Below, piece by piece: positions 15,310-48,108 of a stretch of 64,000 nt of DNA (the stretch's first letter is position 1; each line of letters opens with the position of its first letter). The notes below the pieces were generated by a model, which worked only from the letters and a program-made list of their open reading frames with translations, had not been told where the DNA came from and made no database searches. The stretch lies in the IMG/VR virus record IMGVR_UViG_3300030616_000016, positions 70,561 to 134,560 of that record; one strand, 5' to 3'. The position numbers and the translations under genes were made by a program. This DNA is from a virus.

Positions 15310-15328
15310 TGAGTAATTCCTTTCTGGT

Positions 15329-23608: not shown

Positions 23609-24346
23609 TTATCCGAAAATGAAGTTACAGATGTCCTTGCCGATTTCTTTGCGTTCAACAGACGTGTTGTTTGCTTCTTCTCGTGCAAACTTGACTGCTC
23701 TCATAAGAACAGCAATTTTGTCAAGCATTTCTTTCTTACGAGTTGCAGAAATACATGTACTGAGCTTTGTAGTAGTCCAGTAACCGATAATCTCATCGCT
23801 GACTACAAGCTGAGTCTGTGCAGGATGCTTTTCAGTAGCAGCATAAAGAACGATAGGTTTCTCAACCTTACGTGTTTTATGTGTCTGACGCGCGCCTGAT
23901 TTGAACATTCCGGAATCTTCATCACGAGCCCATGTTTCTGCTGGATCCAGTTCAGGAAGTTTCTCGACATATGTTTTAATATCGTTCAGCTGTTTTTCGA
24001 GGTACAGCAAGAATGTGGGAGGGGCGTCTTTTACAATTACTGTGTCGCCAACCTTAATATCTGCTTTTGCAATGGTATTGCCAAAGTCTTTAGTTGCAGT
24101 AACATCAAACAGATCTGCGAGAGATTCCGCTACTTCGTTAATTACATTGTTCAGATTTTCTTGTACCTTTACTGATTCTTCTGGAAAGTTCTCACCTTCT
24201 TCGTCTTTAGGCTCATATACTTTATGAAGGCCATTGAATATTTGTGGTGCATCTGACAAACGATGAGCCTGAGTAATGATAGAATTATGGCGGGATTTTT
24301 CGCCCTTCTCAACTGCAATAATCTGATTAAGTTTAACTTCAGACAT
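23609..24346 (-). CDS. hypothetical protein (245 aa), locally higher GC
   Basis: minus-strand ORF. Confidence 0.5.
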   Translation of the reverse strand: MSEVKLNQIIAVEKGEKSRHNSIITQAHRLSDAPQIFNGLHKVYEPKDEEGENFPEESVKVQENLNNVINEVAESLADLFDVTATKDFGNTIAKADIKVGDTVIVKDAPPTFLLYLEKQLNDIKTYVEKLPELDPAETWARDEDSGMFKSGARQTHKTRKVEKPIVLYAATEKHPAQTQLVVSDEIIGYWTTTKLSTCISATRKKEMLDKIAVLMRAVKFAREEANNTSVERKEIGKDICNFIFG

Positions 24347-27428: not shown

Positions 27429-28220
27429 TTAGAAATCAGTTGATTTTGCGGTTCTCATACCGCGAGCCATCATTTCTTTCACAAAGTCTTCTCCAAGACT
27501 TTCGAAGGTCGCTACATTTGAAGTTGTATCTTCAATTAATACAAACTTCTTAATATTCTCATCGCCGAAGTTATCAGCAATGTCTCTTACTGTATTTGCA
27601 ACACAGTGTGACAGAGCTTCTCCAGTTATGAGAATATCGTCTGCTTCCAGTAGGCTATCAAGAAGATTGCCATTAAGTCTTGTAGTAGGGTCAGACGGGT
27701 CTTCTACATCGGCTTTTACTGCTGAGTAGTGTTCTGTAAAAGGATTAGACCCTTTAGTAACATAGTCAATCATAGCAAACTGATTTTCCCACTCAGTTAT
27801 TGCTTCGAACACATTAGCATCGATTGAATGTCCTTGCGAACCAATAAGACAATGTGGCCGCCAGATGCAGAGAACATATCTGCCATTGTCTTCAAGTGTT
27901 TTTGTATAATCTGAAGCTTTCTGTTGAAGAGCTGGGTTATAGGAATGCCAGACACCATTTTTTACATCATCATGGGATATTACTGTAAATGGGTTTGGAT
28001 GTTTACCATCTTTATCAACCCAGAATATAGGATGTGCAATATGAATGGTTCTGTGAGAATCCATTGTAATATGGATATCATCTAATCCGTCTTTCATTCT
28101 GTTGACCATTTCTGCAAGACGTTTCATATCCTCATCTGCTCTAGGAACAACTAGGGCTCCTTTTGGATTACAGAAGTCATATTGAGGATCAATAGCAAGA
28201 AGATGAGTTTTCTTGTTCAT
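27429..28220 (-). CDS. isochorismatase-family cysteine hydrolase, nicotinamidase (PncA)-like
   Basis: LLAIDPQYDFCNPKGALVVP (PncA N-terminal D...DF) and LITGEALSHCVANTVRD (catalytic Cys motif). Confidence 0.65.
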   Translation of the reverse strand: MNKKTHLLAIDPQYDFCNPKGALVVPRADEDMKRLAEMVNRMKDGLDDIHITMDSHRTIHIAHPIFWVDKDGKHPNPFTVISHDDVKNGVWHSYNPALQQKASDYTKTLEDNGRYVLCIWRPHCLIGSQGHSIDANVFEAITEWENQFAMIDYVTKGSNPFTEHYSAVKADVEDPSDPTTRLNGNLLDSLLEADDILITGEALSHCVANTVRDIADNFGDENIKKFVLIEDTTSNVATFESLGEDFVKEMMARGMRTAKSTDF

Positions 28221-28239: not shown

Positions 28240-29895
28240 TTATTTTTTAATACTGATAGAGAACATTTCTTTATCCTCTGTAAAGTATACACTGGTACCA
28301 TCAGTGTATAGTGGCATTGATGAGTCTATCGGCGGATTAGTAATAATGCGTTTTTGATTATCTTTAGAGATCTCAATCTTTTGATCGCTAAATACATCAA
28401 TGCAAACTCCATTATTAAGAACAATGAAATTGATATTATCAACATCGCGCTCTTCTTTGTCTAGCAGAATACCTTTATTTTCTTTGCTGCATAGTTTGAA
28501 TCGGAATCTATAATATTTACCAGATTCTTCTGCTATGCATACTAGAATTCCTCTGCTATGTTTTGCATTGATTATTCTAAGTCCATGGAGTTCCTCAATA
28601 GGACCTAGAAAACTACCAGAATCTTCTAATGGCGCATATGCCCAACATTTGTCTAGGAAGTTGCTAATTACTACTCCACTAAACATTTGATTCATAGTAC
28701 CAAGATTTTGGGATGGATTCGAGCATGCCGCGCTCTTATTCCCCATATTTTTTGCATATACCTCATATACTGAGGCGCCGTTTCTGCAAAATATACTACC
28801 ATTGTATATCATGGCTTTGTCTGCGGCAAATTTACCTGGTATATCCGTTTCTATTTCTACACAGCCATTATCAATTATGCCTAACACAGGGTCAGGAGAT
28901 AGATTGCATAGAAATGCCTTTTTATTGGATATATCCTTAAATATGGATTTACCACAGTATATTGCCTTATCCGTAAATGTATAGAAAATACCATTTAGGA
29001 ATTGTATTGATTTAATCGGCTCATTGTACTTATACATTGATTTAATGTCAAAATTTGCTGTGCTTCTTATAGTCTTTTGAACCATAGCTATATTAATTGT
29101 AGCGTCAGGTTTAGGTGGAGCGCTGCGTTTATTCTCAATGAATATTGACTTAAACCACTCCATATGAGCTTTAGGAATAACTGAGAAGTCTTGACATACG
29201 GATGGAATGGTAACCTTACTATCAAATACGGATATACCATCATCCATTCGCTTAGTAAATTCTCTTGGTTTATAGTCTGGGTGTTTACCCTTATAAGGAT
29301 GGATACCAACATAAAGCTGAAATGCTATTACTGCAAACGAGAACCAATCGCTTAGTTCTGTGAACTTTTTGGCTAAGCGGTCTCTTATTGAATCCATAAT
29401 AGCATTAGCTGGAAATGACTTTGTCTGATAACTGTCAACGTCAATAAAGTAAGGTACTTTATGACCTTTGTCTATCAGAAAGTTCATTTCATTCATATCT
29501 ACTATCAGGCATTGTTTAGAATGAATGTGCTCGACCGTGTCTTGTATATTGCGCACAATTTCTAATACTTGATTAGGAGATATATTATTATCTTTTCTGT
29601 ACTGCTTAGTAAAGAGCTTGCATAGAGCACTTGTCTCTTTAATATACTTCATTGTATATCCGATGACATTGCTTGTCTTTTTATCGCAAACAATATCTTC
29701 CGGTTTGATAACATTGCCGGCTGTTATATAGCCAAGCTCTTCAATCTTTCTTAATGGTATCATATGCTTGATATCATTATAAATCTTGAAGGCAATATTG
29801 TCTTTTTTATATACAGAACCTTGACCACCAGATGCAATAAAATCATTGTCTTTCAGGTCAAATGAAGCCTTTGTTCTATTTACAATGACTCTCAT
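28240..29895 (-). CDS. Hanks-type Ser/Thr protein kinase with a C-terminal beta-rich domain
   Basis: Gly loop GGQGSVY, AFKIY (VAIK), catalytic loop HSKQCLIVDMNEMNFLI, and DVDSY (DFG-like). Confidence 0.7.
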   Translation of the reverse strand: MRVIVNRTKASFDLKDNDFIASGGQGSVYKKDNIAFKIYNDIKHMIPLRKIEELGYITAGNVIKPEDIVCDKKTSNVIGYTMKYIKETSALCKLFTKQYRKDNNISPNQVLEIVRNIQDTVEHIHSKQCLIVDMNEMNFLIDKGHKVPYFIDVDSYQTKSFPANAIMDSIRDRLAKKFTELSDWFSFAVIAFQLYVGIHPYKGKHPDYKPREFTKRMDDGISVFDSKVTIPSVCQDFSVIPKAHMEWFKSIFIENKRSAPPKPDATINIAMVQKTIRSTANFDIKSMYKYNEPIKSIQFLNGIFYTFTDKAIYCGKSIFKDISNKKAFLCNLSPDPVLGIIDNGCVEIETDIPGKFAADKAMIYNGSIFCRNGASVYEVYAKNMGNKSAACSNPSQNLGTMNQMFSGVVISNFLDKCWAYAPLEDSGSFLGPIEELHGLRIINAKHSRGILVCIAEESGKYYRFRFKLCSKENKGILLDKEERDVDNINFIVLNNGVCIDVFSDQKIEISKDNQKRIITNPPIDSSMPLYTDGTSVYFTEDKEMFSISIKK

Positions 29896-30731
29896 GGCTT
29901 ATCCTTAAGCAGTGTAGCACATGCTATATCATCAAAGTGCTTATTGTTTATTTTGGAATCCATGATGCGTATTTTCTTCATTCTTCTTTTTACAAACTCT
30001 CCTTTGAAGGTTTTATATACAGTCATTCGTATAGCGTTATCAAGCACACTTGTATTTTCAAAAGAGCTTATACCATCAGTGAACAGGCTTATGCTCATTC
30101 CTTCTGCCATTGGCGCACTAGACATTATGTATGGCTCGAACATGGGGATTGTAGAGCTCTTAAAGTCTTCGTCTGGGTTATATGACAATACTGTTTTTTC
30201 TGGATTGCCCAATATATCCATAGTATTCATATAGTCTTTAATCTTTTCATCTTCCATGCGATATGCAAGATAGTATGGCATGTTAGATGTATATGATATT
30301 TCTTCAATACGAATCCATGGATTTGGGTCATTCGCTCTATCAAAACCATCATTAAAGACAACTACTCCATCTCCCCATACTGCTATGCCAAATCCCTCAT
30401 TATTGGCTATTACTACCATAAGCGTGGCATAGAATGTCTGGATGTCAAGACAAAGAGCTATTGCTACTTTTGATAGCGCTCCCAACACTTTATTTTCAAA
30501 TGAACAAAGAGCAGTTGATAATGTCTTGTGTCCAAACATAACTATTGAGCTTCTTAATGCTTGTTCTGCAGCAATTCCAAGTATTTTTGCACCAAGGTCT
30601 GTGTTTTGTGCAGAAGAACAGCCGTCACAGACGATACCATAGGAATAACCATAGATATCGCCTGTGATAGCATAATCTTCACACATATCATGACTGGCAC
30701 CAATTTCTACAAAACTATCTTTCTGTATCAT
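29892..30731 (-). CDS. PP2C-family Ser/Thr phosphatase
   Basis: GASHDMCEDYAI ... GIVCDGCSS ... DGVVVFNDG are the PP2C metal-binding Asp motifs. Confidence 0.65.
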   Translation of the reverse strand: MIQKDSFVEIGASHDMCEDYAITGDIYGYSYGIVCDGCSSAQNTDLGAKILGIAAEQALRSSIVMFGHKTLSTALCSFENKVLGALSKVAIALCLDIQTFYATLMVVIANNEGFGIAVWGDGVVVFNDGFDRANDPNPWIRIEEISYTSNMPYYLAYRMEDEKIKDYMNTMDILGNPEKTVLSYNPDEDFKSSTIPMFEPYIMSSAPMAEGMSISLFTDGISSFENTSVLDNAIRMTVYKTFKGEFVKRRMKKIRIMDSKINNKHFDDIACATLLKDKP

Positions 30732-30747: not shown

Positions 30748-31497
30748 TTAGAAGTTAAGAATTGAAGATGCCGAGCCGGATCCAAGAGACTGTGATTGTG
30801 AGGATATGCTTTGACTCACAAATTCAGCCAGCTTTGCAAGCTTGGATGGAGTAGCTTCTCCGACAGATACGTATTTATCAAGGTTTGCATTATCCTTGAA
30901 TGTAGTCAAGAAATTCTTGACTGCAGGATCTTTATCAATCCCGATAAGAACCGTAATAATTGATTCGAGGCTTTCTTCTCTTGTGATATCATCTACTAAC
31001 GTAGCAACTTGTACTGGCGCATTATTTGATTGATTATCAGCGCCATCTGTAATGATAAATACAATTGCATTTGTTAGGAGATCTACTTTATCATACATCT
31101 GCTTGCTATACTGATGTGTTGCTTCGATGCCTTCATATGTTGCATCAAATAATGCAGTTGTACCGCCTGTACGGATGATATTAGAGTATTCATCATCACT
31201 AATATCACTTAGGAGGCGGAAACCATGCATTTCGTTCAGATTAGCATTGAATGTAGTGAAGCGAACCATTAAGTTTTCTGCACGTGGAGACTTTTTGCAT
31301 GATTCGATTACAGTTTTCAGCATATCCTCAATATCATCTTTGTATGGAGACACTGAAGAAGATACGTCGATAATAATTGAAACGAGTGTATATTCAGAAG
31401 CACCTAGTTCATCAAGCTTTACAGCACTGAATCTGAAGTTTGATGCAGTCTGCATACTGGTTATGTTTGCAAGATCTTTATCCATTAATCTTGGCAT
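30748..31497 (-). CDS. von Willebrand factor A (vWA, TerY-like) domain protein
   Basis: MIDAS: IIIDVSSSV (DxSxS), GGTTAL, FIITDGADN. Confidence 0.75.
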   Translation of the reverse strand: MPRLMDKDLANITSMQTASNFRFSAVKLDELGASEYTLVSIIIDVSSSVSPYKDDIEDMLKTVIESCKKSPRAENLMVRFTTFNANLNEMHGFRLLSDISDDEYSNIIRTGGTTALFDATYEGIEATHQYSKQMYDKVDLLTNAIVFIITDGADNQSNNAPVQVATLVDDITREESLESIITVLIGIDKDPAVKNFLTTFKDNANLDKYVSVGEATPSKLAKLAEFVSQSISSQSQSLGSGSASSILNF

Positions 31498-33887: not shown

Positions 33888-35558
33888 TTAGTTTATAAGG
33901 CAAAACAGATACTTCTGAATTCTGTCACTGCCTGTTGCATATTCGTCTATCAGGCGATATAAGAGCTTGTCCCAGCCTTTAGATAGCATCAACTGCATTA
34001 CAGTGATGTATATCCTTGTTCCAGACCTCTTACCACTATTTGCATATATTCCATCATCAGATAGCTTACGACTGCATGCATGAGTATTTGTCTGGTGGCT
34101 GAACTTATCTAATACTATCCAGAACACTTTCCCAGACCATGCCTCAACTGTCTGTCCGTTATAAGTATGCTTTTGTGGCTTGCATTCTTTTATAAGAGCA
34201 GATGGTATATTCCCATCTTCTCCTTCTAGAAAGTGAGGAACGGGCGCCGGCCCTGATTCCTCTGCAATATTATTAAGCATAGCTTCTACTATCTGACCTG
34301 GATTCCTACGCTTTAGAGTTGCAAGAGCGTTGGTTACCACTTCTGCTGGTTTGCCATCTATCTTAGGCATTTGCTCGTCTGGTATAATATTTACTATACC
34401 TTTATTACCGTGACGATTTGTAATTTTGTCGCCACTTCTGAGAATATGAAATCTCTCGTATTCGACAATAAGTTTTGTACAAACTGTGTTTGCTACTTTT
34501 GTTCTTATCTCACTGATATTAGACAGTTTAGCTTCACGCTTGACATGACATTTAAGCGTGATTGTTTCTTCTCCATCAGAATAAGAACCAATTATCTGAT
34601 TTGGTCTTACAATGTCTCCGGCTTTGGCTTCCATCTTTAGGCTTTGTTTGCACCATCCTGGTACTACGAATGTCTGTTTCTCAGGAATGACACATGTCAT
34701 TTTTCTAGCTGCTGACTTACTCATAACAATCTGTTCTTTGTATACACCAGGCATGATTGCATGAACTGTAAGTAAGTGCTTGCCATTAAGATTGTTATCA
34801 TAATCTTCTGGAAACACCATAGGTTTATCTGGACTAACTAGCTTGCTGGAAGCCTTGAAATTAGATGCAGTGGTTCTGCGGCGATTATATTCTGGTACAA
34901 TAAGATTCTTATTGAGTATATCGCAATAAACCCGACCTCTTTTGGTGAAGCATCCAATATCGTTTATTTTGCATTCTTCAGCCATGTACATTGTGCGACC
35001 ACAATTCCCCGATGACTGACTTATACTTGTCCAATCAAGAATGCCTTCTGTATTGAATGGCATAAATTCATCCGTTCGTTCTTGAAATAGCTCTAATGAT
35101 ATTTTGGGTCCATAGTGAGTAGCTATTCCCTTTACGACATGAGATAATCTTGAAGTTTTAAGTAAATTATCGAGCTTCATTTGAGCTGTGGTAGAATCTT
35201 CTTGATGTCCGAACATAAAGAAGTCTGACAGTTGTGTAGCATATGCTTGCTTAATGAATTTAAGAAGAAGCTCGTATGGTGTTGATAAATATGTGTGATT
35301 AATATTCATACATCTGTTATTAAAGATTGGCATTGGATTAAGTGTATAGCATAATTGCCGGCTTATTCCATTTACAGAAAACATACCCTTGTTATCAATC
35401 TTAGGTATATTTAGTTTTACGACTGTTTGCATGCTCTGGGATGCCTCTTTAACAAGCATTTTTGTATGAAATAGGTCATCATATTCTTCTATATGACAGT
35501 CAACAGGCAAACAATTACATATAGGAAACAATCTTGCAAGATGAGACTTATTCATCAT
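33888..35558 (-). CDS. multisubunit RNA polymerase beta-subunit-like protein (C-terminal module of beta)
   Basis: GDKITNRHGNKGIVNIIPDEQMPKIDGKPAEVVTNALA aligns with RpoB GDKMAGRHGNKGVVS...; the GKVFWIVLDKFSHQTNTHACSRK region matches the RpoB C-terminal conserved block. Confidence 0.8.
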   Translation of the reverse strand: MMNKSHLARLFPICNCLPVDCHIEEYDDLFHTKMLVKEASQSMQTVVKLNIPKIDNKGMFSVNGISRQLCYTLNPMPIFNNRCMNINHTYLSTPYELLLKFIKQAYATQLSDFFMFGHQEDSTTAQMKLDNLLKTSRLSHVVKGIATHYGPKISLELFQERTDEFMPFNTEGILDWTSISQSSGNCGRTMYMAEECKINDIGCFTKRGRVYCDILNKNLIVPEYNRRRTTASNFKASSKLVSPDKPMVFPEDYDNNLNGKHLLTVHAIMPGVYKEQIVMSKSAARKMTCVIPEKQTFVVPGWCKQSLKMEAKAGDIVRPNQIIGSYSDGEETITLKCHVKREAKLSNISEIRTKVANTVCTKLIVEYERFHILRSGDKITNRHGNKGIVNIIPDEQMPKIDGKPAEVVTNALATLKRRNPGQIVEAMLNNIAEESGPAPVPHFLEGEDGNIPSALIKECKPQKHTYNGQTVEAWSGKVFWIVLDKFSHQTNTHACSRKLSDDGIYANSGKRSGTRIYITVMQLMLSKGWDKLLYRLIDEYATGSDRIQKYLFCLIN

Positions 35559-37074
35559 TATCTTTCTCCAATACTAGGACTCTGTCCCTGAGATACTTGA
35601 TGAGTTGATTTTTGTCTTCGTTATTCAGTACATTCATGATGTGTTCTATGGCTAGAGTATAGAAAGCGTCGCCTTCTACCATGCTTAGTCTAGGATCAAA
35701 CACTGCATAGAATATAGAATTCTCTGCGTCTACTATATCATTAATTAACTTAGGGTTATCCCTATTATATAGTAGATTAAGATATGGCTCGACTTGTTCT
35801 ACGTCTATCTCACAATCTTTAAGTATTTCGCGAGCTACGTTTATGTCGCTAATACCATCATTTTTAAGTACTTTAATGAGACTGACATATGATTCATCAA
35901 GTTTATGTTTAGAATCAAATAGGCGCTGGTTTGCTTGTTCTGATAGCTTATCTGCAGCTTTGGCTATTTCTATATTGCCATCTGCCAATACTCTTGCACG
36001 ACATGCTGCGGCTCCAGCCTTGCCAATCTCTGATTTCTGGAGAATGAGGCCTTTTGCAACCTTGATGTCGTCTTCTCGTATTTCAGATAAGGACTTGCCT
36101 TTAAAGAATCCTGTAAGGTCCTTAACGTCAATGTCTTCTGCATTACACATGGCTTTTATTGTCTCAGAATTTTCTGTGTCAATAAGGTCATGTGGTCCAA
36201 TTACTCTGAATTTTGAGATTCTTTTTACACCATCATCTATTATGTTTTCCAAGTCAGGGGTTTCTTCTTGATTATCGATAAGAAACTCTTTGTCCCACTT
36301 TGTTGTGGACCAGTCTTCTTCTATATCAATATCAGGATACCCAAGTACTGTTTCAATTAGATCTCCATCGGAATCAGCACCCATGCCATCAGTAATAATG
36401 GGATGAATAATGATCCTGTTGGATTTAGTAGGAAGTATGTATAACTTGCGCATAGAATCGTTGTGTAGCAAGGGATTTCTGAATGCAATTACATAAGGCT
36501 TCCCTTCTGTATTGGACTCTTCTTTCCTTTCTTTCCACTTTTCTATGAACTTGACATATATATGCTGAGGTAATTTTATGTGGTCATAAGGCATTCTGAA
36601 GTCGGTAGCAATATGGCCTTTACCAGAATATAATGCTCTGAAACCAAGGATATATGTATTAAACAATCCTGATTTACCGACCAGCTCTTTAGCCATTATT
36701 TTCCATACTCTTTCAGCACTATCTTCCACTACTTCTGTGTCAATATTGCCAATACCAAGTTGGCTAATTGACACAAGTAGTTTTTCTGTAGCGATTTGTA
36801 TATCATTTAATACTATGTGCCCGGCTACTGGTCCTGGCATATTCATATTAGGGATTATTACTTTTTGAACCTTCTTGCCGAAGTAATTATTTATTTCAAT
36901 CGGCAAGTGTACATACCCGCCATACTGAAGTACATCTTCATCAAGTATGGTGTTTTTGAGGTTCTTATTAAGTAAATCCGGTTTTGAAATGATCGCTTTT
37001 GTTGTATTCGAAAATAGATTTCTTCGTATCTGTATATTACCACACTGTTTCGATAAACTCGTCAGATTCATCAT
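35548..37074 (-). CDS. multisubunit RNA polymerase beta'-subunit-like protein (catalytic N-terminal module)
   Basis: VIAFRNPLLHNDSMRKLYILP (NRQPSLH-like) and IITDGMGADSDGDLIE (NADFDGD catalytic loop variant). Confidence 0.75.
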   Translation of the reverse strand: MMNLTSLSKQCGNIQIRRNLFSNTTKAIISKPDLLNKNLKNTILDEDVLQYGGYVHLPIEINNYFGKKVQKVIIPNMNMPGPVAGHIVLNDIQIATEKLLVSISQLGIGNIDTEVVEDSAERVWKIMAKELVGKSGLFNTYILGFRALYSGKGHIATDFRMPYDHIKLPQHIYVKFIEKWKERKEESNTEGKPYVIAFRNPLLHNDSMRKLYILPTKSNRIIIHPIITDGMGADSDGDLIETVLGYPDIDIEEDWSTTKWDKEFLIDNQEETPDLENIIDDGVKRISKFRVIGPHDLIDTENSETIKAMCNAEDIDVKDLTGFFKGKSLSEIREDDIKVAKGLILQKSEIGKAGAAACRARVLADGNIEIAKAADKLSEQANQRLFDSKHKLDESYVSLIKVLKNDGISDINVAREILKDCEIDVEQVEPYLNLLYNRDNPKLINDIVDAENSIFYAVFDPRLSMVEGDAFYTLAIEHIMNVLNNEDKNQLIKYLRDRVLVLEKDNDE

Positions 37075-39254: not shown

Positions 39255-39713
39255 CTAAGTCCAACGAAATAATTTTGAATCTAGAAACAGATGCACTAAC
39301 CATCCGATGGACATAGAGATACAAATTAAAAGAATATTTACAAGTTCTTCGTCTGTATCTTTCCTTAAACAGTATACCATGACAAACGCTATTGTAGGGC
39401 AAAGTATAGCAAAGACTTGTGAATGCATGTATCCACGGTGTTTTGAAGTTTGTGGAAGCAGTGCACATATTGCTACTATATTGGCAATAGCATGTTGTTT
39501 AACAATGAACATGATTAGAAGCGCCAGACAAACAAAACGATTGAACCATCTTTGTGGAATGGATCCAATGTCGAGGTCTGGGATTAGTGAACCACTGAAT
39601 GTGAACAAGCCGCACGCTATTGCTATATCTGGTTTATGACATAAATAGTATGCGCCTGTAGATGTAGCAATGGAAGTTAGTACTCCCATACTACAATGTG
39701 CTTTGAAATTCAT
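39255..39713 (-). CDS. membrane-bound metal-dependent hydrolase (DUF457/YdjM-like)
   Basis: Multiple TM helices and SKHRGYMHS (HRGxxHS motif). Confidence 0.5.
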   Translation of the reverse strand: MNFKAHCSMGVLTSIATSTGAYYLCHKPDIAIACGLFTFSGSLIPDLDIGSIPQRWFNRFVCLALLIMFIVKQHAIANIVAICALLPQTSKHRGYMHSQVFAILCPTIAFVMVYCLRKDTDEELVNILLICISMSIGWLVHLFLDSKLFRWT

Positions 39714-39726
39714 TGTCATTCTCCAA

Positions 39727-40083
39727 TTAGAACACATTGCCTTCCATATCGCTTGCCCATCGACTTACTATATCTTCTGATTCTTCAAGACTCATCTGAG
39801 TAATACGGGCAATTAGTATGACTGTAGCGTTAGATACTTCTTTGTCATTACTAACATTTTTGCCTATATTGTCCTTAAATGAATTTTCAATGAACTTAAG
39901 TGCCTGTTCTTTATCAGCTTCATAGGCGCTTTTTATTATCATGAACGCCGCGTCTATGTTTCTCATCATAGCAAGAAGTATTTTCTGATTATCCAGGTTA
40001 TAGATCATATCATAGCCGATGCTTCTTGCAATTTCTTCCATAAGTTTATTTTTGCATTCTGACATTTTGCTACTCCTTCTCAT
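39727..40083 (-). CDS. hypothetical protein (118 aa)
   Basis: minus-strand ORF. Confidence 0.4.
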   Translation of the reverse strand: MRRSSKMSECKNKLMEEIARSIGYDMIYNLDNQKILLAMMRNIDAAFMIIKSAYEADKEQALKFIENSFKDNIGKNVSNDKEVSNATVILIARITQMSLEESEDIVSRWASDMEGNVF

Positions 40084-40414
40084 CTTCGTTTACTAAGTGT
40101 GGGAATTTATTCACAATTATCTTGCATTGTAGTACTGACTCAAGTTTTCTGATTGTGTCCTTTGTTGTACATACTTCTAAACCGATTGATCTGTCGCCGC
40201 ATAAGTAGAACTGATCGTTTGCTTTTAGTAAGGTACCAGCAGCAAATGCAACGCTCTTATCTTCTTTCTCATCAAGAAGCTCGTCGCTTCTGGTTAAGTG
40301 ATTAAGATTATATTCAATGAATCGCATATCGCCACCTGTTGTTTCAAGAAACTTTATAACGATATTGTTCTTTCTATGAATATCTTCCACCGATAGTATC
40401 TTTTTATTGTGCAT
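40070..40414 (-). CDS. hypothetical protein (114 aa)
   Basis: minus-strand ORF. Confidence 0.4.
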   Translation of the reverse strand: MHNKKILSVEDIHRKNNIVIKFLETTGGDMRFIEYNLNHLTRSDELLDEKEDKSVAFAAGTLLKANDQFYLCGDRSIGLEVCTTKDTIRKLESVLQCKIIVNKFPHLVNEDEKE

Positions 40415-40624
40415 TACCTTGCTCCTTGAAATCTTTATTGGTTATCATGTTACCATTTGCTCTATCTTTTGGAGGTACATAATTATGGTTTAGGGCCTCA
40501 TTTTTTGTAATGCCATGCTCCAATTCTACTCTATTCCAATCTATAAGATCTGATATGCTACTTAGAAAACGTACTGAATCATTTTTATCTTGCGACATCT
40601 TTATCTCCGATAATAATTCATTCT

Positions 40625-40985
40625 ATACATATGGTATATTTATTCTTCGTGATTCATTCGTTTGGCATGGTATTTCAATTTGCTTGATTCGCTAATGAGT
40701 AGTGGTGTTTCAATATTTTTGGCTCATTTTAATACTTTGTTCTATTCTTTCATATGATTCATTCCTTGGTCCTGGTATTTTAGGGCTGATGGCTCATTCA
40801 GTACAATTGGTATTTTCGTGTTCATAATTCATTCTTGTTGTTTGGTATTTCCACCAAGATGACTCATTCTAATAAAGTGGTTGTTCAAATAAAGTGATTC
40901 ATTCTTCCACGTTGATGTATTCAATTGCATAGTTCATTCTTTTCTTGTGATATTTCGTGTAGATTGATTCATTCATGAAAACTAT
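40625..40985. repeat. Degenerate tandem array, about 10 units of about 33-34 bp, consensus TGGTATTTC-N7-8-TGATTCATTC-N7-8
   Basis: Read directly: GATTCATTC recurs about 9 times and GGTATTT about 8 times with regular phasing. Confidence 0.7.
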
Positions 40986-41610
40986 GATATTCACTCCAGA
41001 ATAACTTTTCTCTGTAATCCTTACATGCTTTCATGTATTCTTCTAAAGTCTGTAGAAATGATTTCTGTTCTTTTCTATTGTATGTTATAGGCATAGGAGG
41101 AAATCTTTTTATATATTCCTCTTGCTTTTTCTTTTGTATCTTCTTACGCCTATTTTTTCTTGCAAGTTTTCTTCTTGCTTTCATGCGTTGTGTTTTATTA
41201 AGTTGTACAATTTCACTTGTAATTGTTCTTCTATGAATAATCCACGATTTCCTAAGTTCTTGTTTAAATTCCTTAAAGAAATCCCATTCTTCTATAGCTC
41301 TGATTTTTCTTTTGAGACGCCTTCTTATTTTAATCCTTGATTTTCTAATGTGATTAAGTGTGAATATTTTACTACTTATATCTTTGGGCTCATGTTTATC
41401 GAATCCTGGTATCCAGTTATATTCACACCATAGGGTAAGATCTTTTGTAATTTGTTGAACATGCTCGTAATCTGGTTTTACATAATATGTTCTATATTCT
41501 GGAAGATAATGATTGTTTCTTTGTTCTTCAACGAGTTTGTTTGCTACAATAATTACGCAGCCTTTTAGTGATTTTATTAGATGTTCTCTAACAGATTTTG
41601 TTCGATTCAT
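40969..41610 (-). CDS. highly basic protein (213 aa; R/K-rich tracts such as IKIRRRLKRKIR and RMKARRKLARKNRRKKIQKKKQ), candidate DNA-binding protein
   Basis: Minus-strand ORF between the two repeat arrays. Confidence 0.5.
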   Translation of the reverse strand: MNRTKSVREHLIKSLKGCVIIVANKLVEEQRNNHYLPEYRTYYVKPDYEHVQQITKDLTLWCEYNWIPGFDKHEPKDISSKIFTLNHIRKSRIKIRRRLKRKIRAIEEWDFFKEFKQELRKSWIIHRRTITSEIVQLNKTQRMKARRKLARKNRRKKIQKKKQEEYIKRFPPMPITYNRKEQKSFLQTLEEYMKACKDYREKLFWSEYHSFHE

Positions 41611-41637
41611 TTAGTTTATCCTTATATACAATATGCT

Positions 41638-42030
41638 TTAGAACAAAAACCTTACGTTTGGATACTCCTTGAGACATTCAAGACCGGGTTTGATTACTTC
41701 CTGGAAGATATTATATCTGTTAGCTAGCCCGCCACCTAATCTGCTAATTAAGAAGATATAATCATCATATTCTTCTATTCTTCTCTCTAGCTTGGCTAGT
41801 TCTGTTTGGAATTTAGGCTTATATTCTTCTGGCTTATAAAAGCTACCGTCATTGTTATTAGGCGCCTTCTTTGTTACGAATCCATATGTATTTGGCATAT
41901 CACGCAGCTTAGCAGCTCCGCCATATCCCTTATGTAATAGATTGTCGCCAAATACAAATATTTCATATCTATGTCTCTTTAAATAGGCCCTTGTTATTTT
42001 TGTCTCACCGCCGCTTCTATTAGATTCCAT
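41638..42030 (-). CDS. hypothetical protein (130 aa) with an IFVFGDNLLHKGYGGAAK motif
   Basis: Minus-strand ORF. The G-rich motif is reminiscent of Rossmann-like nucleotide-processing folds, but the family is not identified. Confidence 0.45.
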   Translation of the reverse strand: MESNRSGGETKITRAYLKRHRYEIFVFGDNLLHKGYGGAAKLRDMPNTYGFVTKKAPNNNDGSFYKPEEYKPKFQTELAKLERRIEEYDDYIFLISRLGGGLANRYNIFQEVIKPGLECLKEYPNVRFLF

Positions 42031-42079
42031 TTATATCTCCCTTAATAAATTTGAGCCGCAATTATTACGCAGGATTCAA

Positions 42080-42298
42080 TTGAGAGCAGAGGTAGTTGGT
42101 GTCCAATGTCTGTTGGTCAATCCTGCTTACACATCCCAGACTTGTTCAAAGTGTGGTTATGTCCACAAGCTCAATCGGAATGGTGAGATATTTAATTGCA
42201 GGAATTGTGGCTGCAAAGGGGATGCTGATTTAAATGCATCTCGAAATATCTTGAATCTTGGATTGGCTCAGGAGTCTATAGTCCCTGAAAAAACATAA
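42080..42298 (+). pseudogene. TnpB 3' fragment (RuvC-III plus zinc finger only), divergent from the full tnpB at 21.9 kb
   Basis: VNPAYTSQTCSKCGYVHKLNRNGEIFNCRNCGCKGDADLNASRNILNLGL; there is no N-terminal portion. Confidence 0.6.
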
Positions 42299-42329
42299 AA
42301 GAATATTCCTCTATAAATATTCTAACTAT

Positions 42330-42920
42330 TGGTGTTTTCCTTTTTGTGATTCATTCATTATAACTGATGTTTCTATAAGTGTGATTCATTCTTTAATAAT
42401 GGTAATTTAATGGCTTTGATTCATTTTTCCCCAATGGTATTTCTTATGTAATTATTCATTCTTTATACTTGATATTGTGACTACATTGATTCATTTGTAT
42501 GGACTGGTATTTCATATTTAGTGATTCACTCACTTATTTTGGTATTTCCATGGGTGTGGTTCATTCCGGCATGATGGTACTTCTAGGCAATTAATTCATT
42601 CTTATAGTCTGGTACATTGTCCTATCTGATTCATTCCTTCTTTATGGTATTTCGTGACTGATAATTCATTCTGTTCAGCTGGTATTTTGGAGCTTATGAT
42701 TCGTTCGCAATTAATGGTACTTTCTGATTTATAACTCATTTTCTCCGAATGGTATTTCAGATTGAGTGATTCATTTGTTCATGTTGAATTATTGTGCAAA
42801 GTGATTCATTCTCGCGACATGGTATTTTGGGGCTAATGATTCATTCATAATATATGATATTTTTTGGATAATGATTCGTTCATGTTGCATGGTAATTCTA
42901 GGACGCTGACTCGCTCCAAG
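42330..42920. repeat. Second degenerate tandem array, about 17 units of about 33-34 bp, same consensus (TGGTATTTC ... TGATTCATTC) and same orientation as array 1
   Basis: Read directly; ATTCATTC and GGTATTTC cores alternate with variable 7-8-nt spacers. Confidence 0.7.
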
Positions 42921-43009
42921 GGCTTGTAATCTTAACGGATTTGGCTTATGCTATTTATTAGTAAAACAGGGCAAGCCATTGTAGCTTGCCCTGTAATATA
43001 TTCTTCATA

Positions 43010-44020
43010 TTACCAAGGCCAGTTAGGGACCTCGATCTTATGAACATGTTTCAAGTGATCGAATGCATAAGGCTGGAAAGGCGCTTCGACGCCATAATGA
43101 GCACGATAAGCAACTTCCCACCAGTGAGACAGGAATATCTTAGTAGCCCATCTCTTACTTCTCATATGAATCTGACTATTGGGGAGCTTGCCTTCGCGAT
43201 ATATTGCCCTCTGTTTATGACCAGGCACTCTTCGAAGAACTTCTCGTGCAATATGCGCATATTCCTTGGCTTCATTCTTACGCGACTCGATAATCTTCCT
43301 TTCAACAACAAGATGTCCATAGAGATCTTTTGGATTGTTGCATGTCATATTGAAAGACTCACCGATTTTCCAGCAGAGTGTTTTCAGTTCTGAATTCCAG
43401 GGACGCATTGACAGACCTCTGTAAAGCGTCTTGCCTGTATGAACTCCGCCTCCTTTCTGTAATGAGAGACGAAGTGCGGTAGCTGCTTTGATTCCTCCGG
43501 CTTCTTGTATCGCATTTGCTACCTTAATAGCATCTTCTTCAGATACTCTTCTTGTACTATCAGGATTAATACCGGCTTCGTCAACCATGATTTCTCTTGT
43601 AACTTTCTTGCCAAGCCAGCGCTTTCCGTCTACAAGACCAGCATAGCTATAGATATGTCCTGGAGTCTTAGCTTTGTCCATATCTATATGGGCAATAAGA
43701 CCGGCGCTGATAACAGGGCCAATACCTACAACTGATTGAGCCCATGTACCAATTTTTGTTGATAATGAGAAATGATTGAGCGCGAGCTTCACCTGATTCT
43801 CAAGACGCTCCGCATTCTTAAGAAACCAATCAAGCACTTCCATTGGAGGGTCGTCTACGCCCTGCTCTGCTGCTCTAAGCTGACCAGCAAGCCTGATTCT
43901 CTGGTTCTGCATGGTATAATAACTATCTACCAGATAGCGGGCTTCCTGACGCGTAATCTTTCTTGACGCGTTTCTTATGTCTTTACCTACTCTTTCAATA
44001 ATTTCTTCAATAGCCATCAC
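43010..44020 (-). CDS. hypothetical Trp-rich protein (336 aa) with a Transposase_20-like helix-hairpin-helix motif; locally GC-rich
   Basis: VVGIGPVISAGLIAHIDMDKAKTPGHIYSYAGLV resembles the IS110-family C-terminal HhH (PGIG..tA..L.A...D..RF.s...L.sYAGL). No DEDD N-terminal domain was recognised. Confidence 0.45.
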   Translation of the reverse strand: MMAIEEIIERVGKDIRNASRKITRQEARYLVDSYYTMQNQRIRLAGQLRAAEQGVDDPPMEVLDWFLKNAERLENQVKLALNHFSLSTKIGTWAQSVVGIGPVISAGLIAHIDMDKAKTPGHIYSYAGLVDGKRWLGKKVTREIMVDEAGINPDSTRRVSEEDAIKVANAIQEAGGIKAATALRLSLQKGGGVHTGKTLYRGLSMRPWNSELKTLCWKIGESFNMTCNNPKDLYGHLVVERKIIESRKNEAKEYAHIAREVLRRVPGHKQRAIYREGKLPNSQIHMRSKRWATKIFLSHWWEVAYRAHYGVEAPFQPYAFDHLKHVHKIEVPNWPW

Positions 44021-44038
44021 AATGTCTCCAAAAATTAA

Positions 44039-45196
44039 TTAAAGCATGTTTACCATGCTATTATATAGACCCGCATACTCTTGCGGGCCTGAACGTTTGC
44101 CTGGGTTATCGGACAATTTAACAGTAGGAACAAAGCCCTCTCTATTATATGAACAGGCAGTCATTTTAATAACGATATTAAGAGGATCTACTCCAACATC
44201 ATTAGTGAAATTAGTGCCTATACCATATACTGTTTTGATTCTTTTGTTTACATATTCTTCTATCTCAAGAACCTTGTCAACATCAAGAGAGTCTGAGAAT
44301 ACAATGGTTTTTGTACTTGGATCTATACCAAGGCTCTCATAGTGTTTTATTATTTTGTCAGCAAATTCCATAGGATCGCCTGAATCTTGCCTTACACCAT
44401 CCCAAAGACTCGCTCTGACATAATCAAATGATCTTAGAAACCAATCAGTTGTATAAGTATCAGTAAGCGCTATGCCTAGTTTGCCCTTATATGTCTCTGC
44501 CCATTTATCAAGGGCAATAGAAGTAGCCATTTGAGGACCAAATATGGCGCCGTGGAACATAAACCACTCATGAGCTTGTGTGCCAATTGGTCGCATGTTA
44601 TGAGTGGTTGCTAATAATACATTACTTGTACCAAGACAGTATTGTGAAATTTGTTTTCTTGTAGACATGTCATCCAGAAGTTCATTCTGTACACCAAATG
44701 AAAATCTGCGTCTGGTTCCGAATTCTATGAAGTTGACTTTGTGCTTGATGAGTTTGTCAACCTTGTCTACATTTGTTTTATATCTTTCTTTCCTGAACTT
44801 AGGCGCTATACCAAGCTTAAGATAGTATAGCTCGCTAATAGCCGCTAATAGCGGTACTTCCCATAGTATAGCAGAATACCATGGCCCGCATATTTCTACT
44901 TTGAGATCTTCGTCTGTTTGTGTAACACATACTTCATTAGGATTGAATCGATGATGTCGTAGGTATTCTAGATATGTTGAATCAAAGACTCCAATCTTTC
45001 GCATAGCTGTAATACTATCGTCTATAAAGTATGTATGTTGCATATGATCAATAAACTCATTTAATTCCTTTTGCATACTTTCAGGGAACTCAGTCTTTGT
45101 TCTTGACTTGAATTCATATTTTACTAATGCAGATGGATAGTGTTTAAGTACTGCATTTTGCATGGCGAACTTATAGAAATCATTGTCTGCTGCCAT
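44039..45196 (-). CDS. pncB: nicotinate phosphoribosyltransferase (NAPRTase, PncB-type)
   Basis: FIEFGTRRRFS, LGTSNVLLA and VRQDSGDP signatures of the NaPRTase family. Confidence 0.8.
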   Translation of the reverse strand: MAADNDFYKFAMQNAVLKHYPSALVKYEFKSRTKTEFPESMQKELNEFIDHMQHTYFIDDSITAMRKIGVFDSTYLEYLRHHRFNPNEVCVTQTDEDLKVEICGPWYSAILWEVPLLAAISELYYLKLGIAPKFRKERYKTNVDKVDKLIKHKVNFIEFGTRRRFSFGVQNELLDDMSTRKQISQYCLGTSNVLLATTHNMRPIGTQAHEWFMFHGAIFGPQMATSIALDKWAETYKGKLGIALTDTYTTDWFLRSFDYVRASLWDGVRQDSGDPMEFADKIIKHYESLGIDPSTKTIVFSDSLDVDKVLEIEEYVNKRIKTVYGIGTNFTNDVGVDPLNIVIKMTACSYNREGFVPTVKLSDNPGKRSGPQEYAGLYNSMVNML

Positions 45197-45219
45197 TGTT
45201 ATCTCCGATAATGAATATG

Positions 45220-45702
45220 TTAATATATAGCATCTAATCCTTCACCTGCACGAAATATTTCTGCCTTTTCTATGGCTTCTAATAAACCCTTACATTCACA
45301 ACCGCAATGTATACATATTGCTAATTCTTTTGGATCTACTCGATCTTTCTTATTCAAAAGCTCATTGTTAAATTCTCTGGATCCACAGTAATTACATTGT
45401 GCTCTAAATACTTCTTCAAGTAACCAAGTAGAAATACCCTCTTTCCCTGTTGTGCATGTATGTTCTGGCTCCATACTTGTCAGATGGATATAATCATTTG
45501 GATAAGTTATAGTTTCTGTTCTTATAACTCTATGAAAATATCCAATACATTTCCTTAGTTGTTCTCGATAATCGCTATCTGGGCCAAGATCATCTGCTAT
45601 TTCATATGGTAATAGAATTTCTCCAACATTATATGTTTCCATGACTACTCCATCCCGATGGTATCTATGAAGTATTGTCCATCTCTTAATAATGTCACAC
45701 AA
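45220..45702 (-). CDS. hypothetical Cys-rich protein (160 aa)
   Basis: C-terminus has CNYCGS...CIHCGCEC. Confidence 0.4.
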   Translation of the reverse strand: MCDIIKRWTILHRYHRDGVVMETYNVGEILLPYEIADDLGPDSDYREQLRKCIGYFHRVIRTETITYPNDYIHLTSMEPEHTCTTGKEGISTWLLEEVFRAQCNYCGSREFNNELLNKKDRVDPKELAICIHCGCECKGLLEAIEKAEIFRAGEGLDAIY

Positions 45703-46205
45703 GAATGTTTGGATAATAGTTCGCGTGTATCAAATGGCTCTGTAATTATATGACAGCCATTTAAGGTATCAATTTTGGCTACTTGATTATCAGAAGGAAG
45801 TAGATTCATGATATCGATTATTGTATCTTGATCTGTAGTATCTACATCAAGCATAAACATCTTATCACTATGTGCATGCTCTTTTTGCATTAGAGCAGTG
45901 CGCCACCATGAATCAATAGAAGCTGATATTTCTGGATGGTCAATCATCTTCTTCATAAGCCATTTCATTGCTGCTTCACAATTACGGCTATTGACAGTCT
46001 TGTAAATACGCCACATTCCTCCCCTAATAGTGAGTTCTTCTTTAAGAATTTCTAGATCTATATCATGATCTTTAATAACGCGACGAATACATTTAGGCTT
46101 ATTATCGTTTATCTCCTGGTCTTTATTTCTTCGAACTGCAATGAACAAATCCACAAACTTTGAATAAAATGTTGGCTCTTTGTTTGACATTTCTATTCCT
46201 TTCAC
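45645..46205 (-). CDS. hypothetical protein (186 aa)
   Basis: minus-strand ORF. Confidence 0.45.
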   Translation of the reverse strand: MKGIEMSNKEPTFYSKFVDLFIAVRRNKDQEINDNKPKCIRRVIKDHDIDLEILKEELTIRGGMWRIYKTVNSRNCEAAMKWLMKKMIDHPEISASIDSWWRTALMQKEHAHSDKMFMLDVDTTDQDTIIDIMNLLPSDNQVAKIDTLNGCHIITEPFDTRELLSKHSCVTLLRDGQYFIDTIGME

Positions 46206-46327
46206 AATAAATTGCCACAGAAGCTACCTAGCAATACAGAAATTGTGCCAAGAAGTAATCCTATGAGCAGTGGCCATACTGCTTCAAGCATCTTTTTAAA
46301 ATCTTCCATAATAATAACTCCTTGCAT

Positions 46328-46669
46328 TCAATTGACTGATTTGGATCCACAGTTTGGACATTCAAATAAGAGTTTAATATCATAGCCACAATAAAAGCAT
46401 TGATTATACGGCTCAAGATATTTTATAGTATTGACTGTATTAATAGTTGTGCCAAGTGCGACATTGCTATTAGGGTTTAGAGTGGCATTAGAAAGCTGAA
46501 ACATATTCCATTTTAATCTTTTAGTTATATATACATTGTGCTTATGAGTCCAATTGTATATATAATTCCTATGTACATCGGAAATATCTTCGTTACAAGT
46601 AAGTATGTTCTTGTGATATCTGACGCGTATGTGTCGCTTCATTACTTTTGCGGCTTCTCTATATTTCAT
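46328..46669 (-). CDS. member of the small zinc-ribbon paralog family (C-terminal CFYCG...CPNCGS)
   Basis: Shared N-terminal MKYREAAKV-type start and a C-terminal CxxCG-x8-CxNCG. Confidence 0.5.
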   Translation of the reverse strand: MKYREAAKVMKRHIRVRYHKNILTCNEDISDVHRNYIYNWTHKHNVYITKRLKWNMFQLSNATLNPNSNVALGTTINTVNTIKYLEPYNQCFYCGYDIKLLFECPNCGSKSVN

Positions 46670-46910
46670 TGTGATGGTCCATTTCCGAATACGACTCCGT
46701 CTCTGTACCCTTCTGTATGTCCAGCATTATATCCTGCCGCATAGGCTTTCTTTGCTAGTTCTTTTTGCTTTTTATCTTTTATACTAGCAGCTCTACACCA
46801 TTTCTTGAATTCCTTCTCACTGTATTCCATCATCCTCCTCCTCATAGCGGTCATCTTCAGTCATCTTATGGCGACTTAAGAATGCCCATATTATTATGAT
46901 TATCAATAAT

Positions 46911-47153
46911 TCAACCCCCATTGTTGTCTCCATCTACATGATGATTTTTGCAAATTCTTACCTTGTGTCCTTGATAGTCAATTTCTTTTGTATCCGCCAT
47001 GGCATTCAATCTGCCACAAATAATACATCTTCCAACTGACTTTCTCTTTTCAGCTATTTTATTGCCCAGCAATGCTTTACTATCATTATTTTTGCTCATA
47101 AAAATTCTCCTATTGGTTATGTTGTTGTCTGATAACATTAAGGAATGCATCAA
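46911..47153 (-). CDS. small zinc-binding hypothetical protein (80 aa)
   Basis: CIICG...H..VRICKNHH. Confidence 0.35.
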   Translation of the reverse strand: MMHSLMLSDNNITNRRIFMSKNNDSKALLGNKIAEKRKSVGRCIICGRLNAMADTKEIDYQGHKVRICKNHHVDGDNNGG

Positions 47154-47439
47154 TTCTATCAGAAGGTCTTTTGCGCAATTCTTGAATATAAATCGCGCGT
47201 CTTTTGGTAAGATTATCTATCCTCTCTTTTAGTTTCACTTCTTTCCTTGAAATATAAAACTTTCTTACTATTGGTGATAGAACAAACCATCTACTCTTTA
47301 GTTTTTCGTACTTTACTTTCAATAGCCATATTTCATCATTTAAATTGTTTATGGCAATAGATAAATCAGCACCTGACATTTTTGGAATAAGGTTAGTTTT
47401 CATGCTCTCTCCATATTTCATAATAATGTAGAGCCGCAT
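47110..47439 (-). CDS. hypothetical coiled-coil protein (109 aa)
   Basis: minus-strand ORF. Confidence 0.35.
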   Translation of the reverse strand: MRLYIIMKYGESMKTNLIPKMSGADLSIAINNLNDEIWLLKVKYEKLKSRWFVLSPIVRKFYISRKEVKLKERIDNLTKRRAIYIQELRKRPSDRIDAFLNVIRQQHNQ

Positions 47440-47777
47440 AAATCACAAATCTTCTGCTCTATATTAATATCTTTATTCCCACAAAATGGACATAATGCTA
47501 AATGAATGTTCTGAATGTCTGTTGATGTTAATGCTGCTGTATGCCAATAAGAGTCTATGACTATTGATTTATACTCCATGTGTATTCTAGATATTTTGAT
47601 ACTCTTGTTTGCTATAGTATTTGGAAGCCTGCATTGATACATTGTTGTACCATCTCCTTTATCATATATAGCACCATTAATAAGAGGAGAGTTTTCATCT
47701 TGTACATAAATTACAGACCATTGGTTTTCGTATGCAATAACACATTCTTCATAGGTCATTATGATACTCTCCTTCAA
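47418..47777 (-). CDS. zinc-ribbon paralog family member (LCPFCGNKDINIEQKICDLCGS)
   Basis: family signature. Confidence 0.5.
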   Translation of the reverse strand: MKESIIMTYEECVIAYENQWSVIYVQDENSPLINGAIYDKGDGTTMYQCRLPNTIANKSIKISRIHMEYKSIVIDSYWHTAALTSTDIQNIHLALCPFCGNKDINIEQKICDLCGSTLL

Positions 47778-47784
47778 TAATCAA

Positions 47785-48108
47785 TTAGTATTCTATAATG
47801 ACTTCTGGCTGTTTATACTCATTTGTATCTTTGTTAGTTTTAACCGGCGGCAAGACATTAATGATCCTACCATATGTGTCTTTTACTGTGCGGCTCGCTT
47901 CAAATTCTTCTTGTGTTAGTTCATTGGGATTGCCATACTGTTTGACCCATCCATTATATAGCTGCTTAGCATTTCTTTCTCTTTTTTGTATGATGCTTTT
48001 GCTGCTTCTAAATGTACATATAATCATTGATGAAAGTATGCAGATTATCGCTAATAGTACTACTAATTCAATAAAGGCAAACCCTTTATTACACTTTAAT
48101 ATTTTCAT
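47785..48108 (-). CDS. prepilin-type N-terminal cleavage/methylation domain protein (ComGC-like pseudopilin, 107 aa)
   Basis: MKILKCNK-GFAFIELVVLLAIICIL is a basic leader followed by G|F, Glu at +5 and a hydrophobic helix, i.e. a class III signal peptide. Confidence 0.6.
   Translation of the reverse strand: MKILKCNKGFAFIELVVLLAIICILSSMIICTFRSSKSIIQKRERNAKQLYNGWVKQYGNPNELTQEEFEASRTVKDTYGRIINVLPPVKTNKDTNEYKQPEVIIEY

Follow-up and report, generated by a model that had tools for sequence, protein, structure and literature searches.

The window analysed here is a stretch of 64,000 nucleotides (nt) from the IMG/VR virus record IMGVR_UViG_3300030616_000016, and it contains a gene of nicotinate phosphoribosyltransferase, pncB, together with a gene of a long-form PncA-like nicotinamidase. 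With moderate confidence, the two products are interpreted as the first two steps of a deamidating salvage of nicotinamide adenine dinucleotide (NAD+) in a probable huge phage, in which the nicotinamidase is coupled through its operon to a phospho-switch and NAD+ is likely kept or rebuilt during infection. The gene identities, catalytic residues, fold, operon structure and conserved neighbourhoods described below were observed directly. The window is a part of a metagenomic contig of 231,593 bp (ENA ERZ27252234 k141_1275754). The sequence read comprised 84 kb, i.e. the 64-kb window and 10 kb on each side, and the other approximately 147 kb lay outside the analysis.

According to the proposed mechanism, the divergent nicotinamidase would convert nicotinamide to nicotinate, and PncB would join nicotinate with phosphoribosyl pyrophosphate (PRPP) to form nicotinate mononucleotide (NaMN). 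NaMN would then be finished to NAD+ by NadD and NadE, provided by the host or by the remaining 147 kb of the contig. The nicotinamidase is presumed to share its transcript with a vWA protein, with a phosphatase of the PP2C type and with a kinase fused to a propeller, and the phosphorylation switch formed by these three proteins may gate or localise the recycling of nicotinamide. The phage would benefit from an NAD+ pool that is kept or rebuilt in infection, including the situation after NADase-type defences have released nicotinamide. What we infer are the activities of the enzymes, the control exerted by the triad and the role in counter-defence; the enzymatic interpretation is well supported, and the counter-defence role, which was already proposed in the literature, is plausible.

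Family assignment and catalytic residues of PncB and the PncA-like protein

The pncB gene was located at 44039..45196 on the minus strand and encodes, from an ATG start, a protein of 385 amino acids (aa). A sequence-only reading of the window had proposed a PncB with the FGTRRR, GTSN and RQDSGD motifs at this position. The open reading frame (ORF) was exact, and the motifs were found at residues 159-164, 189-192 and 269-274, respectively, with an additional GTQAHEW at 205-211. The curated NCBIfam cut-offs were passed with 438 bits vs 379 (NF003704) and 394.3 bits vs 269.55 (TIGR01514). The Pfam matches to NAPRTase_N (residues 4-121, E 8e-31) and NAPRTase (residues 155-368, E 9e-57) resulted in a two-domain architecture. 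All these scores greatly exceed what chance would give. The alignment with solved NAPRTases extended from end to end, and the best solved relative was that of Porphyromonas gingivalis (2im5, E 6.6e-79). H209 of the GTQAHEW motif matched the histidine of 2im5 and 1yir in the alignment; in Salmonella PncB, this conserved histidine is the autophosphorylated residue.

In an alignment of 40 bacterial and viral sequences, all 42 invariant columns were retained by the window protein, R162-R164, H209, D271, S272, G325, G327 and T328 among them. The catalytic residues are all present, and nothing points to an inactivated enzyme. The nearest relatives, only about 50% identical, came from Bacteroidota, Myxococcota and huge phages alike. 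The predicted reaction is the ATP-coupled formation of NaMN from nicotinate and PRPP. An identity as NAMPT or Namat was considered and rejected: the PncB models were far over the cut-off (E 1e-131), and the PHROG nicotinamide phosphoribosyltransferase family was matched only with E 2e-19.

The PncA-like protein, 263 aa with an ATG start, is encoded at 27429..28220 on the minus strand. The earlier description of this gene as a PncA-like hydrolase of the isochorismatase family with a D-K-C triad held for the ORF and the triad, to which the nicotinamidase fold and the metal site could be added, and failed at the curated family cut-offs. The score with Pfam Isochorismatase (PF00857) was 18.8 bits, under the gathering score of 27, and that with NCBIfam PncA (NF008623) was 33.7 vs 174. 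Among solved structures, the sequence matches of the PncA-like protein were nicotinamidases only. The family itself is large and well conserved (3,168 matches, the top ones about 60% identical), and the GenBank phage records with a long PncA amounted to only four, all metagenomic.

An AlphaFold2 (AF2) model built on 51 family members reached a mean confidence (pLDDT) of 94.8. The Foldseek matches ranked 1-18 among PDB structures were all nicotinamidases, with E values from 1e-15 to 1e-8 and target-normalised TM-scores of 0.52-0.81, most of them about 0.8. They originated from A. baumannii, yeast, Leishmania, Pyrococcus, Drosophila, M. tuberculosis, S. pneumoniae and S. mutans. D11, D54, H63, H123, K156 and C206 were invariant in the 51 homologues, and H56 was kept in at least 90% of them; the catalytic Cys, whose loss had been named as a possible objection, is therefore in place. 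G200 and A202, which belong to the G-x-A-x-x-x-C stretch before the Cys, were likewise invariant. D11, K156, C206, G200 and A202 were also invariant in a 7-sequence alignment of phage PncAs with the M. tuberculosis enzyme.

D11/K156/C206 align with the D8/K96/C138 triad of M. tuberculosis PncA, and D54/H56/H63/H123 with its metal ligands D49/H51/H57/H71. An Asp/His metal site is the feature which sets nicotinamidases apart from the other isochorismatase-fold amidases. Compared with classical PncA, the window protein is extended by about 50 residues (roughly 66-117), inserted between the metal ligands H63 and H123, and by smaller insertions. Because the fold, the triad and the metal site match those of nicotinamidases, the protein is termed nicotinamidase-like, and the hydrolysis of nicotinamide to nicotinate and NH3 is predicted. 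This prediction has indirect support from the position of the gene beside PncB-NadE-NadD in L010 and at the head of bacterial operons with pncB as the final gene.

Two further observations concern this family. In locus L221, the gene call over the nicotinamidase region (1-649) gives a product of 517 aa with GIY-YIG/NUMOD3 homing-endonuclease domains, so that a mobile endonuclease may have entered the nicotinamidase gene or become fused with it. A separate subfamily of nicotinamidase-like proteins shares about 35% identity with that of the window and is encoded directly downstream of a NadE-like gene (L013-L054, at about 10001-10621). It was found in about 40 near-identical IMG/VR contigs, most of 230-400 kb, with no kinase or PP2C nearby.

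Just downstream of pncB, after a gap of 18 nt, 43010-44020 (minus strand) encodes a 336-aa protein with a weak match to the helix-hairpin-helix of IS110-family Transposase_20 (E 8e-5); no relatives of this protein were present in any retrieved locus. Within 42080-43009, a 72-aa ORF on the plus strand (42080-42298) resembles the C-terminal RuvC/zinc-finger end of TnpB (NPAYTSQTCSKCG...CRNCG...DADLNASRNI). It matches the TnpB-bearing loci L207 and L208 and is followed by about 700 nt without an ORF. The region has the appearance of an IS200/605-type element in decay, situated about 1.7 kb downstream of pncB and past the 336-aa gene.

The vWA-PP2C-kinase operon and its link to NAD-synthesis genes

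The PncA-like gene is not free-standing. It is the final gene of a conserved operon, overlooked in the sequence-only reading, which runs on the minus strand from 31497 to 27429 with no overlap or gap longer than 19 nt and contains, from 5' to 3', the genes of a vWA protein, a PP2C phosphatase, a protein kinase and the PncA-like protein. The vWA protein (30748..31497, 249 aa) is TerY-like and holds a DxSxS motif (DVSSS, residues 44-48). A direct Pfam match was lacking, and the assignment was based on 46% identity (E 2e-69) to a neighbour of the cassette in locus L059 which bears PF00092 VWA. The 279-aa product of 29892..30731 was assigned to the PP2C-family protein phosphatases (Pfam PP2C_2, E 3.7e-10), and the stop of its gene overlaps the start of the kinase gene by 4 nt.

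The kinase gene (28240..29895) lies immediately upstream of the PncA-like gene. Its product consists of a protein kinase domain (residues ~1-255) and an all-beta, propeller-like domain (~282-551). The Pfam Pkinase match (E 4e-7) was under the gathering score. Among 42 homologues, the catalytic residues G23, G24, H125, D133, N138 and D152 were invariant and K37 was kept in at least 90%. With an AF2 model of pLDDT 90, Foldseek assigned the N-terminal half to protein kinases and the C-terminal half to Nup133/Hsv2 propellers.

The operon is flanked on the same strand by an SPFH/Band-7 protein gene (31500-32486), recorded with a 4-nt overlap with the vWA start, and by an S41 peptidase gene with a lipoprotein-like N-terminus (26301-27305), downstream of the nicotinamidase. 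Both were considered as parts of the cassette. With the exception of one S41 match, they did not recur with the cassette elsewhere and are therefore regarded as local neighbours.

The conservation of the cassette was determined with 80 IMG/VR loci holding a long PncA and with 42 GTDB bacterial loci having at least 5.5 kb downstream. Of the 80 viral loci, 75 had vWA together with the long PncA, 74 had PP2C, 73 the kinase and 70 all three. All three partners were detected in 25 of the 42 bacterial loci, which span Armatimonadota, Acidobacteriota, Desulfobacterales, Thiotrichaceae and other groups. In total, matching stretches were present at least 176 times in viral contigs and at least 584 times in GTDB species-representative genomes. 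A search begun from kinase homologues recovered the same cassette, including the nicotinamidase. The usual order in viral loci was PncA-vWA-PP2C-kinase. The recurrent bacterial operon had the order long PncA-vWA-PP2C-kinase-PncB, PncB often standing right after the kinase; the PncB genes tested in such operons scored 450-545 bits against the cut-off of 379. Since only the cassette and PncB are common to the window and the related loci, the cassette behaves as a mobile module.

The connection of the nicotinamidase to NAD synthesis was apparent from the gene orders of related viral loci. The orders PncB-NadE-PncA-NadD and NadD..PncB-NadE-PncA were found in L009 and L006, respectively; in L010, the long PncA precedes PncB-NadE-NadD and holds the place which the classical PncA has in the two former clusters. 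NadE, PncA and PncB stand together in L004/L005, PncA adjoins PncB in L011, and L012 has the order NadD-PP2C-kinase-long PncA-vWA-NadE. Larger distances also occurred: PncB and the long PncA are about 30 kb apart in a contig represented by its two parts L008 and L206, and both genes lie about 28 kb apart in the huge phages LR756511 and LR756500. In the stretches read, 7 of the 8 viral contigs that encode a PncB relative had a nicotinamidase as well.

Half of the viral loci (40 of 80) had one or more NAD-synthesis genes within 10 kb of the cassette, namely PncB (26 loci), NadE (14), NadD (11) and a NadM-like adenylyltransferase-Nudix (14). NAD genes were situated inside the cassette in 9 of the 80 loci, as in the arrangements A-V-P-B-E-K of L195 and A-V-B-P-D-K of L167, L183 and L217. 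The connection of this nicotinamidase family to pncB, nadE and nadD is thus supported by comparative genomics. In a further group of loci (L059/L060, L141, L220 and L002), the cassette was situated amid genes of PARP, ADP-ribosylglycohydrolase, NADAR, a NadM-like adenylyltransferase-Nudix and a divergent 453-aa NAPRTase-family protein. These ADP-ribose-related neighbours tie the cassette to NAD/ADP-ribose conflict biology.

A kinase-linked nicotinamidase cassette was not described in the literature searched, and no publication linking nicotinamidase, TerY or PP2C with phage defence was found there. Neither a nicotinamidase nor the vWA-PP2C-kinase triad was mentioned in surveys that cover viral NAD systems or jumbo phages. 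The cassette and its close tie to NAD-synthesis genes in huge phages and bacteria look new.

Weighing of the proposed role and its alternatives

Several results weigh against the salvage role proposed for the two phage genes. By PF00857 and NF008623, the PncA-like protein is outside the curated sequence families, and these missed thresholds, together with the approximately 50-residue insert close to the active site, mean that it could act on a different substrate. In the window, 16 kb separate the two genes, and pncB stands among unrelated genes. NadD and NadE were not found in the window or in 10 kb on each side, either by Pfam scans of the window ORFs or by tblastn with phage NadE and NadD queries; within the 84 kb read the route therefore ends at NaMN, and the synthesis of NAD+ relies on genes elsewhere. 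The two-gene pathway of the sequence-only reading was accordingly upheld in its enzyme assignments and in the link seen in related loci, and weakened by the distance of the genes and by the lack of NadD and NadE in the sequence read. No capsid or terminase gene was seen in the 84 kb, so that the origin of the contig from a huge phage is probable, not proven. The cassette is also common in ordinary bacterial chromosomes; it is thus not restricted to phages, and it may serve primarily in housekeeping regulation or in defence and not in counter-defence. Finally, removal of nicotinamide could relieve the product inhibition of NADases, as with yeast Pnc1/Sir2, which would harm the phage.

The strongest alternative, although an unlikely one in our estimation, is that PncA and PncB are auxiliary metabolic genes which raise NAD+ for the NAD-consuming enzymes and the replication load of the phage, independently of any NADase defence of the host. 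It agrees with the jumbo-phage survey, in which NAD-synthesis genes were present alongside many NAD-consuming enzymes and complemented host pathways (PMC11662467). The PARP, ADP-ribosylglycohydrolase and NadM-like genes adjoining the cassette in related loci can be read in the same way, and the operon in bacterial chromosomes resembles a resident pncA-pncB operon. In contrast, 7 of 8 viral contigs pair their PncB with a nicotinamidase, which points to nicotinamide, the product of NAD cleavage, as the input and not to environmental nicotinate. The dedicated kinase/phosphatase switch likewise suggests a triggered response instead of a constitutive one. The sequence by itself is compatible with both the metabolic and the counter-defence reading.

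A role of the cassette itself as a conflict system, either of bacterial defence or of phage superinfection exclusion, is considered improbable. Here the effector would destroy nicotinamide and thereby starve the NARP1 or NARP2 pathways of rival phages, or would relieve the inhibition of NADases, and the link to PncB in the window would be incidental. The architecture resembles that of TerY-P triads, variants of which are stand-alone anti-phage systems according to PMC11090510 (citing Gao 2020). The cassette is exchanged as a module among genomes of phages and bacteria that are unrelated to one another, with 50-65% identity, and nicotinamide is consumed by both NARP1 and NARP2. PADLOC, however, gave no match for vWA, PP2C or the nicotinamidase and only weak ones for the kinase, which has a propeller in place of the TerY-P zinc ribbon or OB fold. 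In addition, 40 of 80 viral loci have NAD-building genes (PncB, NadE, NadD, NadM-like) beside the cassette or within it, which speaks for synthesis rather than deprivation.

Least probable is that the 263-aa protein is an isochorismatase-superfamily amidohydrolase with another substrate (NMN, nicotinamide riboside, NAD+ or an unrelated amide) which does not feed PncB: the missed Pfam and NCBIfam thresholds, the insert between H63 and H123 with the other insertions, the lower-ranked Foldseek matches to biuret hydrolase, maleamate amidase and carbamoylsarcosine amidase, and the frequent neighbour NadE, which acts on the deamidated dinucleotide, would allow it, but the metal site D54, H56, H63 and H123 is invariant or nearly so and aligned with the metal ligands of M. 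tuberculosis PncA, the top 18 structural matches are all nicotinamidases, and in L010 the protein replaces the classical PncA beside PncB-NadE-NadD.

Deamidating salvage by the nicotinamidase and PncB remains the preferred interpretation, and it can be extended. The cassette with PncB, NadE, NadD or NadM might constitute a signal-gated module for the rebuilding of NAD+, i.e. a fourth type of NAD+ reconstitution, regulated and deamidating, which is common to huge phages and many bacterial phyla and is switched by phosphorylation when NAD+ is destroyed. This extension is speculative and is put forward only tentatively. If true, it would be the first phage counter-defence metabolic pathway with its own kinase/phosphatase control. 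NAD+ depletion is a major bacterial anti-phage strategy, and the three phage NAD+ reconstitution pathways proven so far do not include the deamidating PncA/PncB route. Huge phages shown to recycle nicotinamide in this way would represent a new branch of the arms race, and such recycling would account for the frequent presence of a nicotinamidase alongside phage pncB. The coupling of the nicotinamidase to the triad also suggests a phospho-signalling control of NAD salvage in many organisms.

Genomic context and comparison with known systems

The window has a G+C content of about 35% and densely packed genes, nearly all on the minus strand. They include helicases, RecA, uracil-DNA glycosylase, a split RNA-polymerase beta-like gene, TnpB and numerous small unknown ORFs. 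Searches of the window for tRNA genes and Rfam families gave no match. Among GenBank phages, the best matches of PncB and the PncA-like protein were metagenomic phages of 460-735 kb. Megablast of positions 40000-48000 against 50,697 phage records resulted in 0 matches, and an exact 40-mer from pncB was absent from IMG/VR; a close sequenced relative of the contig is therefore missing from those collections.

Among the other genes, all on the minus strand where a strand is given, a reverse transcriptase (RVT_1, E 8e-20) and a RecA homologue are encoded at 878-2026 and 1983-3107 with an overlap of 44 nt at the RecA end. A ThiF-family E1-like enzyme adjoins the uracil-DNA glycosylase (14572-15336 and 15329-16042, both minus). 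A ThiS-like small protein was matched somewhere between 23609 and 51069 without being assigned to an ORF, and the ThiF-like and ThiS-like genes may form a phage ubiquitin-like conjugation system. The match of 33888-35558 (minus) to RNA-polymerase Rpb2 domain 6 suggests a split multisubunit RNA polymerase as in jumbo phages; the adjacent large gene (35548-37074, minus) had no family match. An apparently intact TnpB is encoded at 21900-23117 (minus; OrfB_IS605 and Cas12f1-like TNB, PHROG transposase E 1e-133). A second Cas12f1-like TNB match (E 8e-13) was located in the final 13 kb of the window, between 51331 and 63792, and not pinned to an ORF.

DUF7873 (E 8e-90), DUF7831 (E 6e-19) and a YdjM-like membrane protein were assigned to 23609-24346, 41638-42030 and 39255-39737 (minus), respectively, and MqsR-toxin and DUF488 matches fell within the 23.6-51 kb block, again unpinned. 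In the contig beyond window position 1 (L055, 15538-20260), DNA polymerase III alpha is apparently divided into two genes with a LAGLIDADG-type gene between them, which is consistent with the insertion of an intein or a homing endonuclease.

In comparison with the classical PncA/PncB salvage (PncA of E. coli and M. tuberculosis, PncB of Salmonella, Pnc1 of yeast), the window PncB is an equivalog by curated hidden Markov models, and the window nicotinamidase agrees with classical PncA in its fold, Asp-Lys-Cys triad and metal ligands. It differs from the latter by an identity of only about 20% to solved nicotinamidases in the Foldseek alignments, by several insertions and by the operon coupling to signalling proteins. 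It is also longer: most of the solved nicotinamidases that it matched have 179-216 aa, against its 263 aa.

The Preiss-Handler clusters pncB-nadD-nadE of the 'NAD-jumbo phages' were published in 2024 in Microbiome (PMC11662467). The authors proposed the cluster as a possible counter to NAD+ depletion and mentioned phage pncA only in passing. The window resembles these phages in a large-phage PncB and in making NAD+ through the deamidated route. In contrast to them, it has no nadD or nadE in the 84 kb read, and its nicotinamidase is a divergent long form in a vWA-PP2C-kinase operon, which PMC11662467 does not mention.

The phage NAD+ reconstitution pathways NARP1 (Adps and Namat) and NARP2 (Nampt and Nmnat) counter NADase defences (10.1101/2024.02.11.579819), as does NARP3 (PnuC and NadR). 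Similarly to the window, all three consist of phage genes rebuilding NAD+ from salvage precursors, and NARP1 and NARP2 also begin with nicotinamide. They share no component homology with the window genes: PRPP-synthetase-like, cytidylyltransferase/NadR and PnuC families were not detected in Pfam scans of the window ORFs. PncA and PncB are not mentioned in the NARP1-3 papers. The predicted PncA/PncB route would deamidate nicotinamide first and need four enzymes and an amidation step. The suggestion that PncA and PncB offer a distinct way of recycling nicotinamide was therefore correct in the difference from NARP1-3 and not new as an idea, as the counter-depletion role had already been published for jumbo phages (PMC11662467).

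The triad of the cassette was finally compared with TerY-P, which comprises a TerY-like vWA protein, PP2C and a Ser/Thr kinase (PMC11090510, citing Anantharaman 2012 and Gao 2020). Filing the window triad under TerY-P was rejected, with no support from PADLOC (for the kinase only weak mad6 and PD-T4-6 matches) and with a differing C-terminal domain. The adjacent vWA, PP2C and kinase genes and the DxSxS motif kept in the vWA protein are common to both. The TerY-P kinase carries a C-terminal zinc ribbon, or an OB fold in the defence variant, whereas that of the window carries a beta-propeller-like domain. The partner differs as well, being an NAD-salvage enzyme in the cassette and a restriction or nuclease module in TerY-P.

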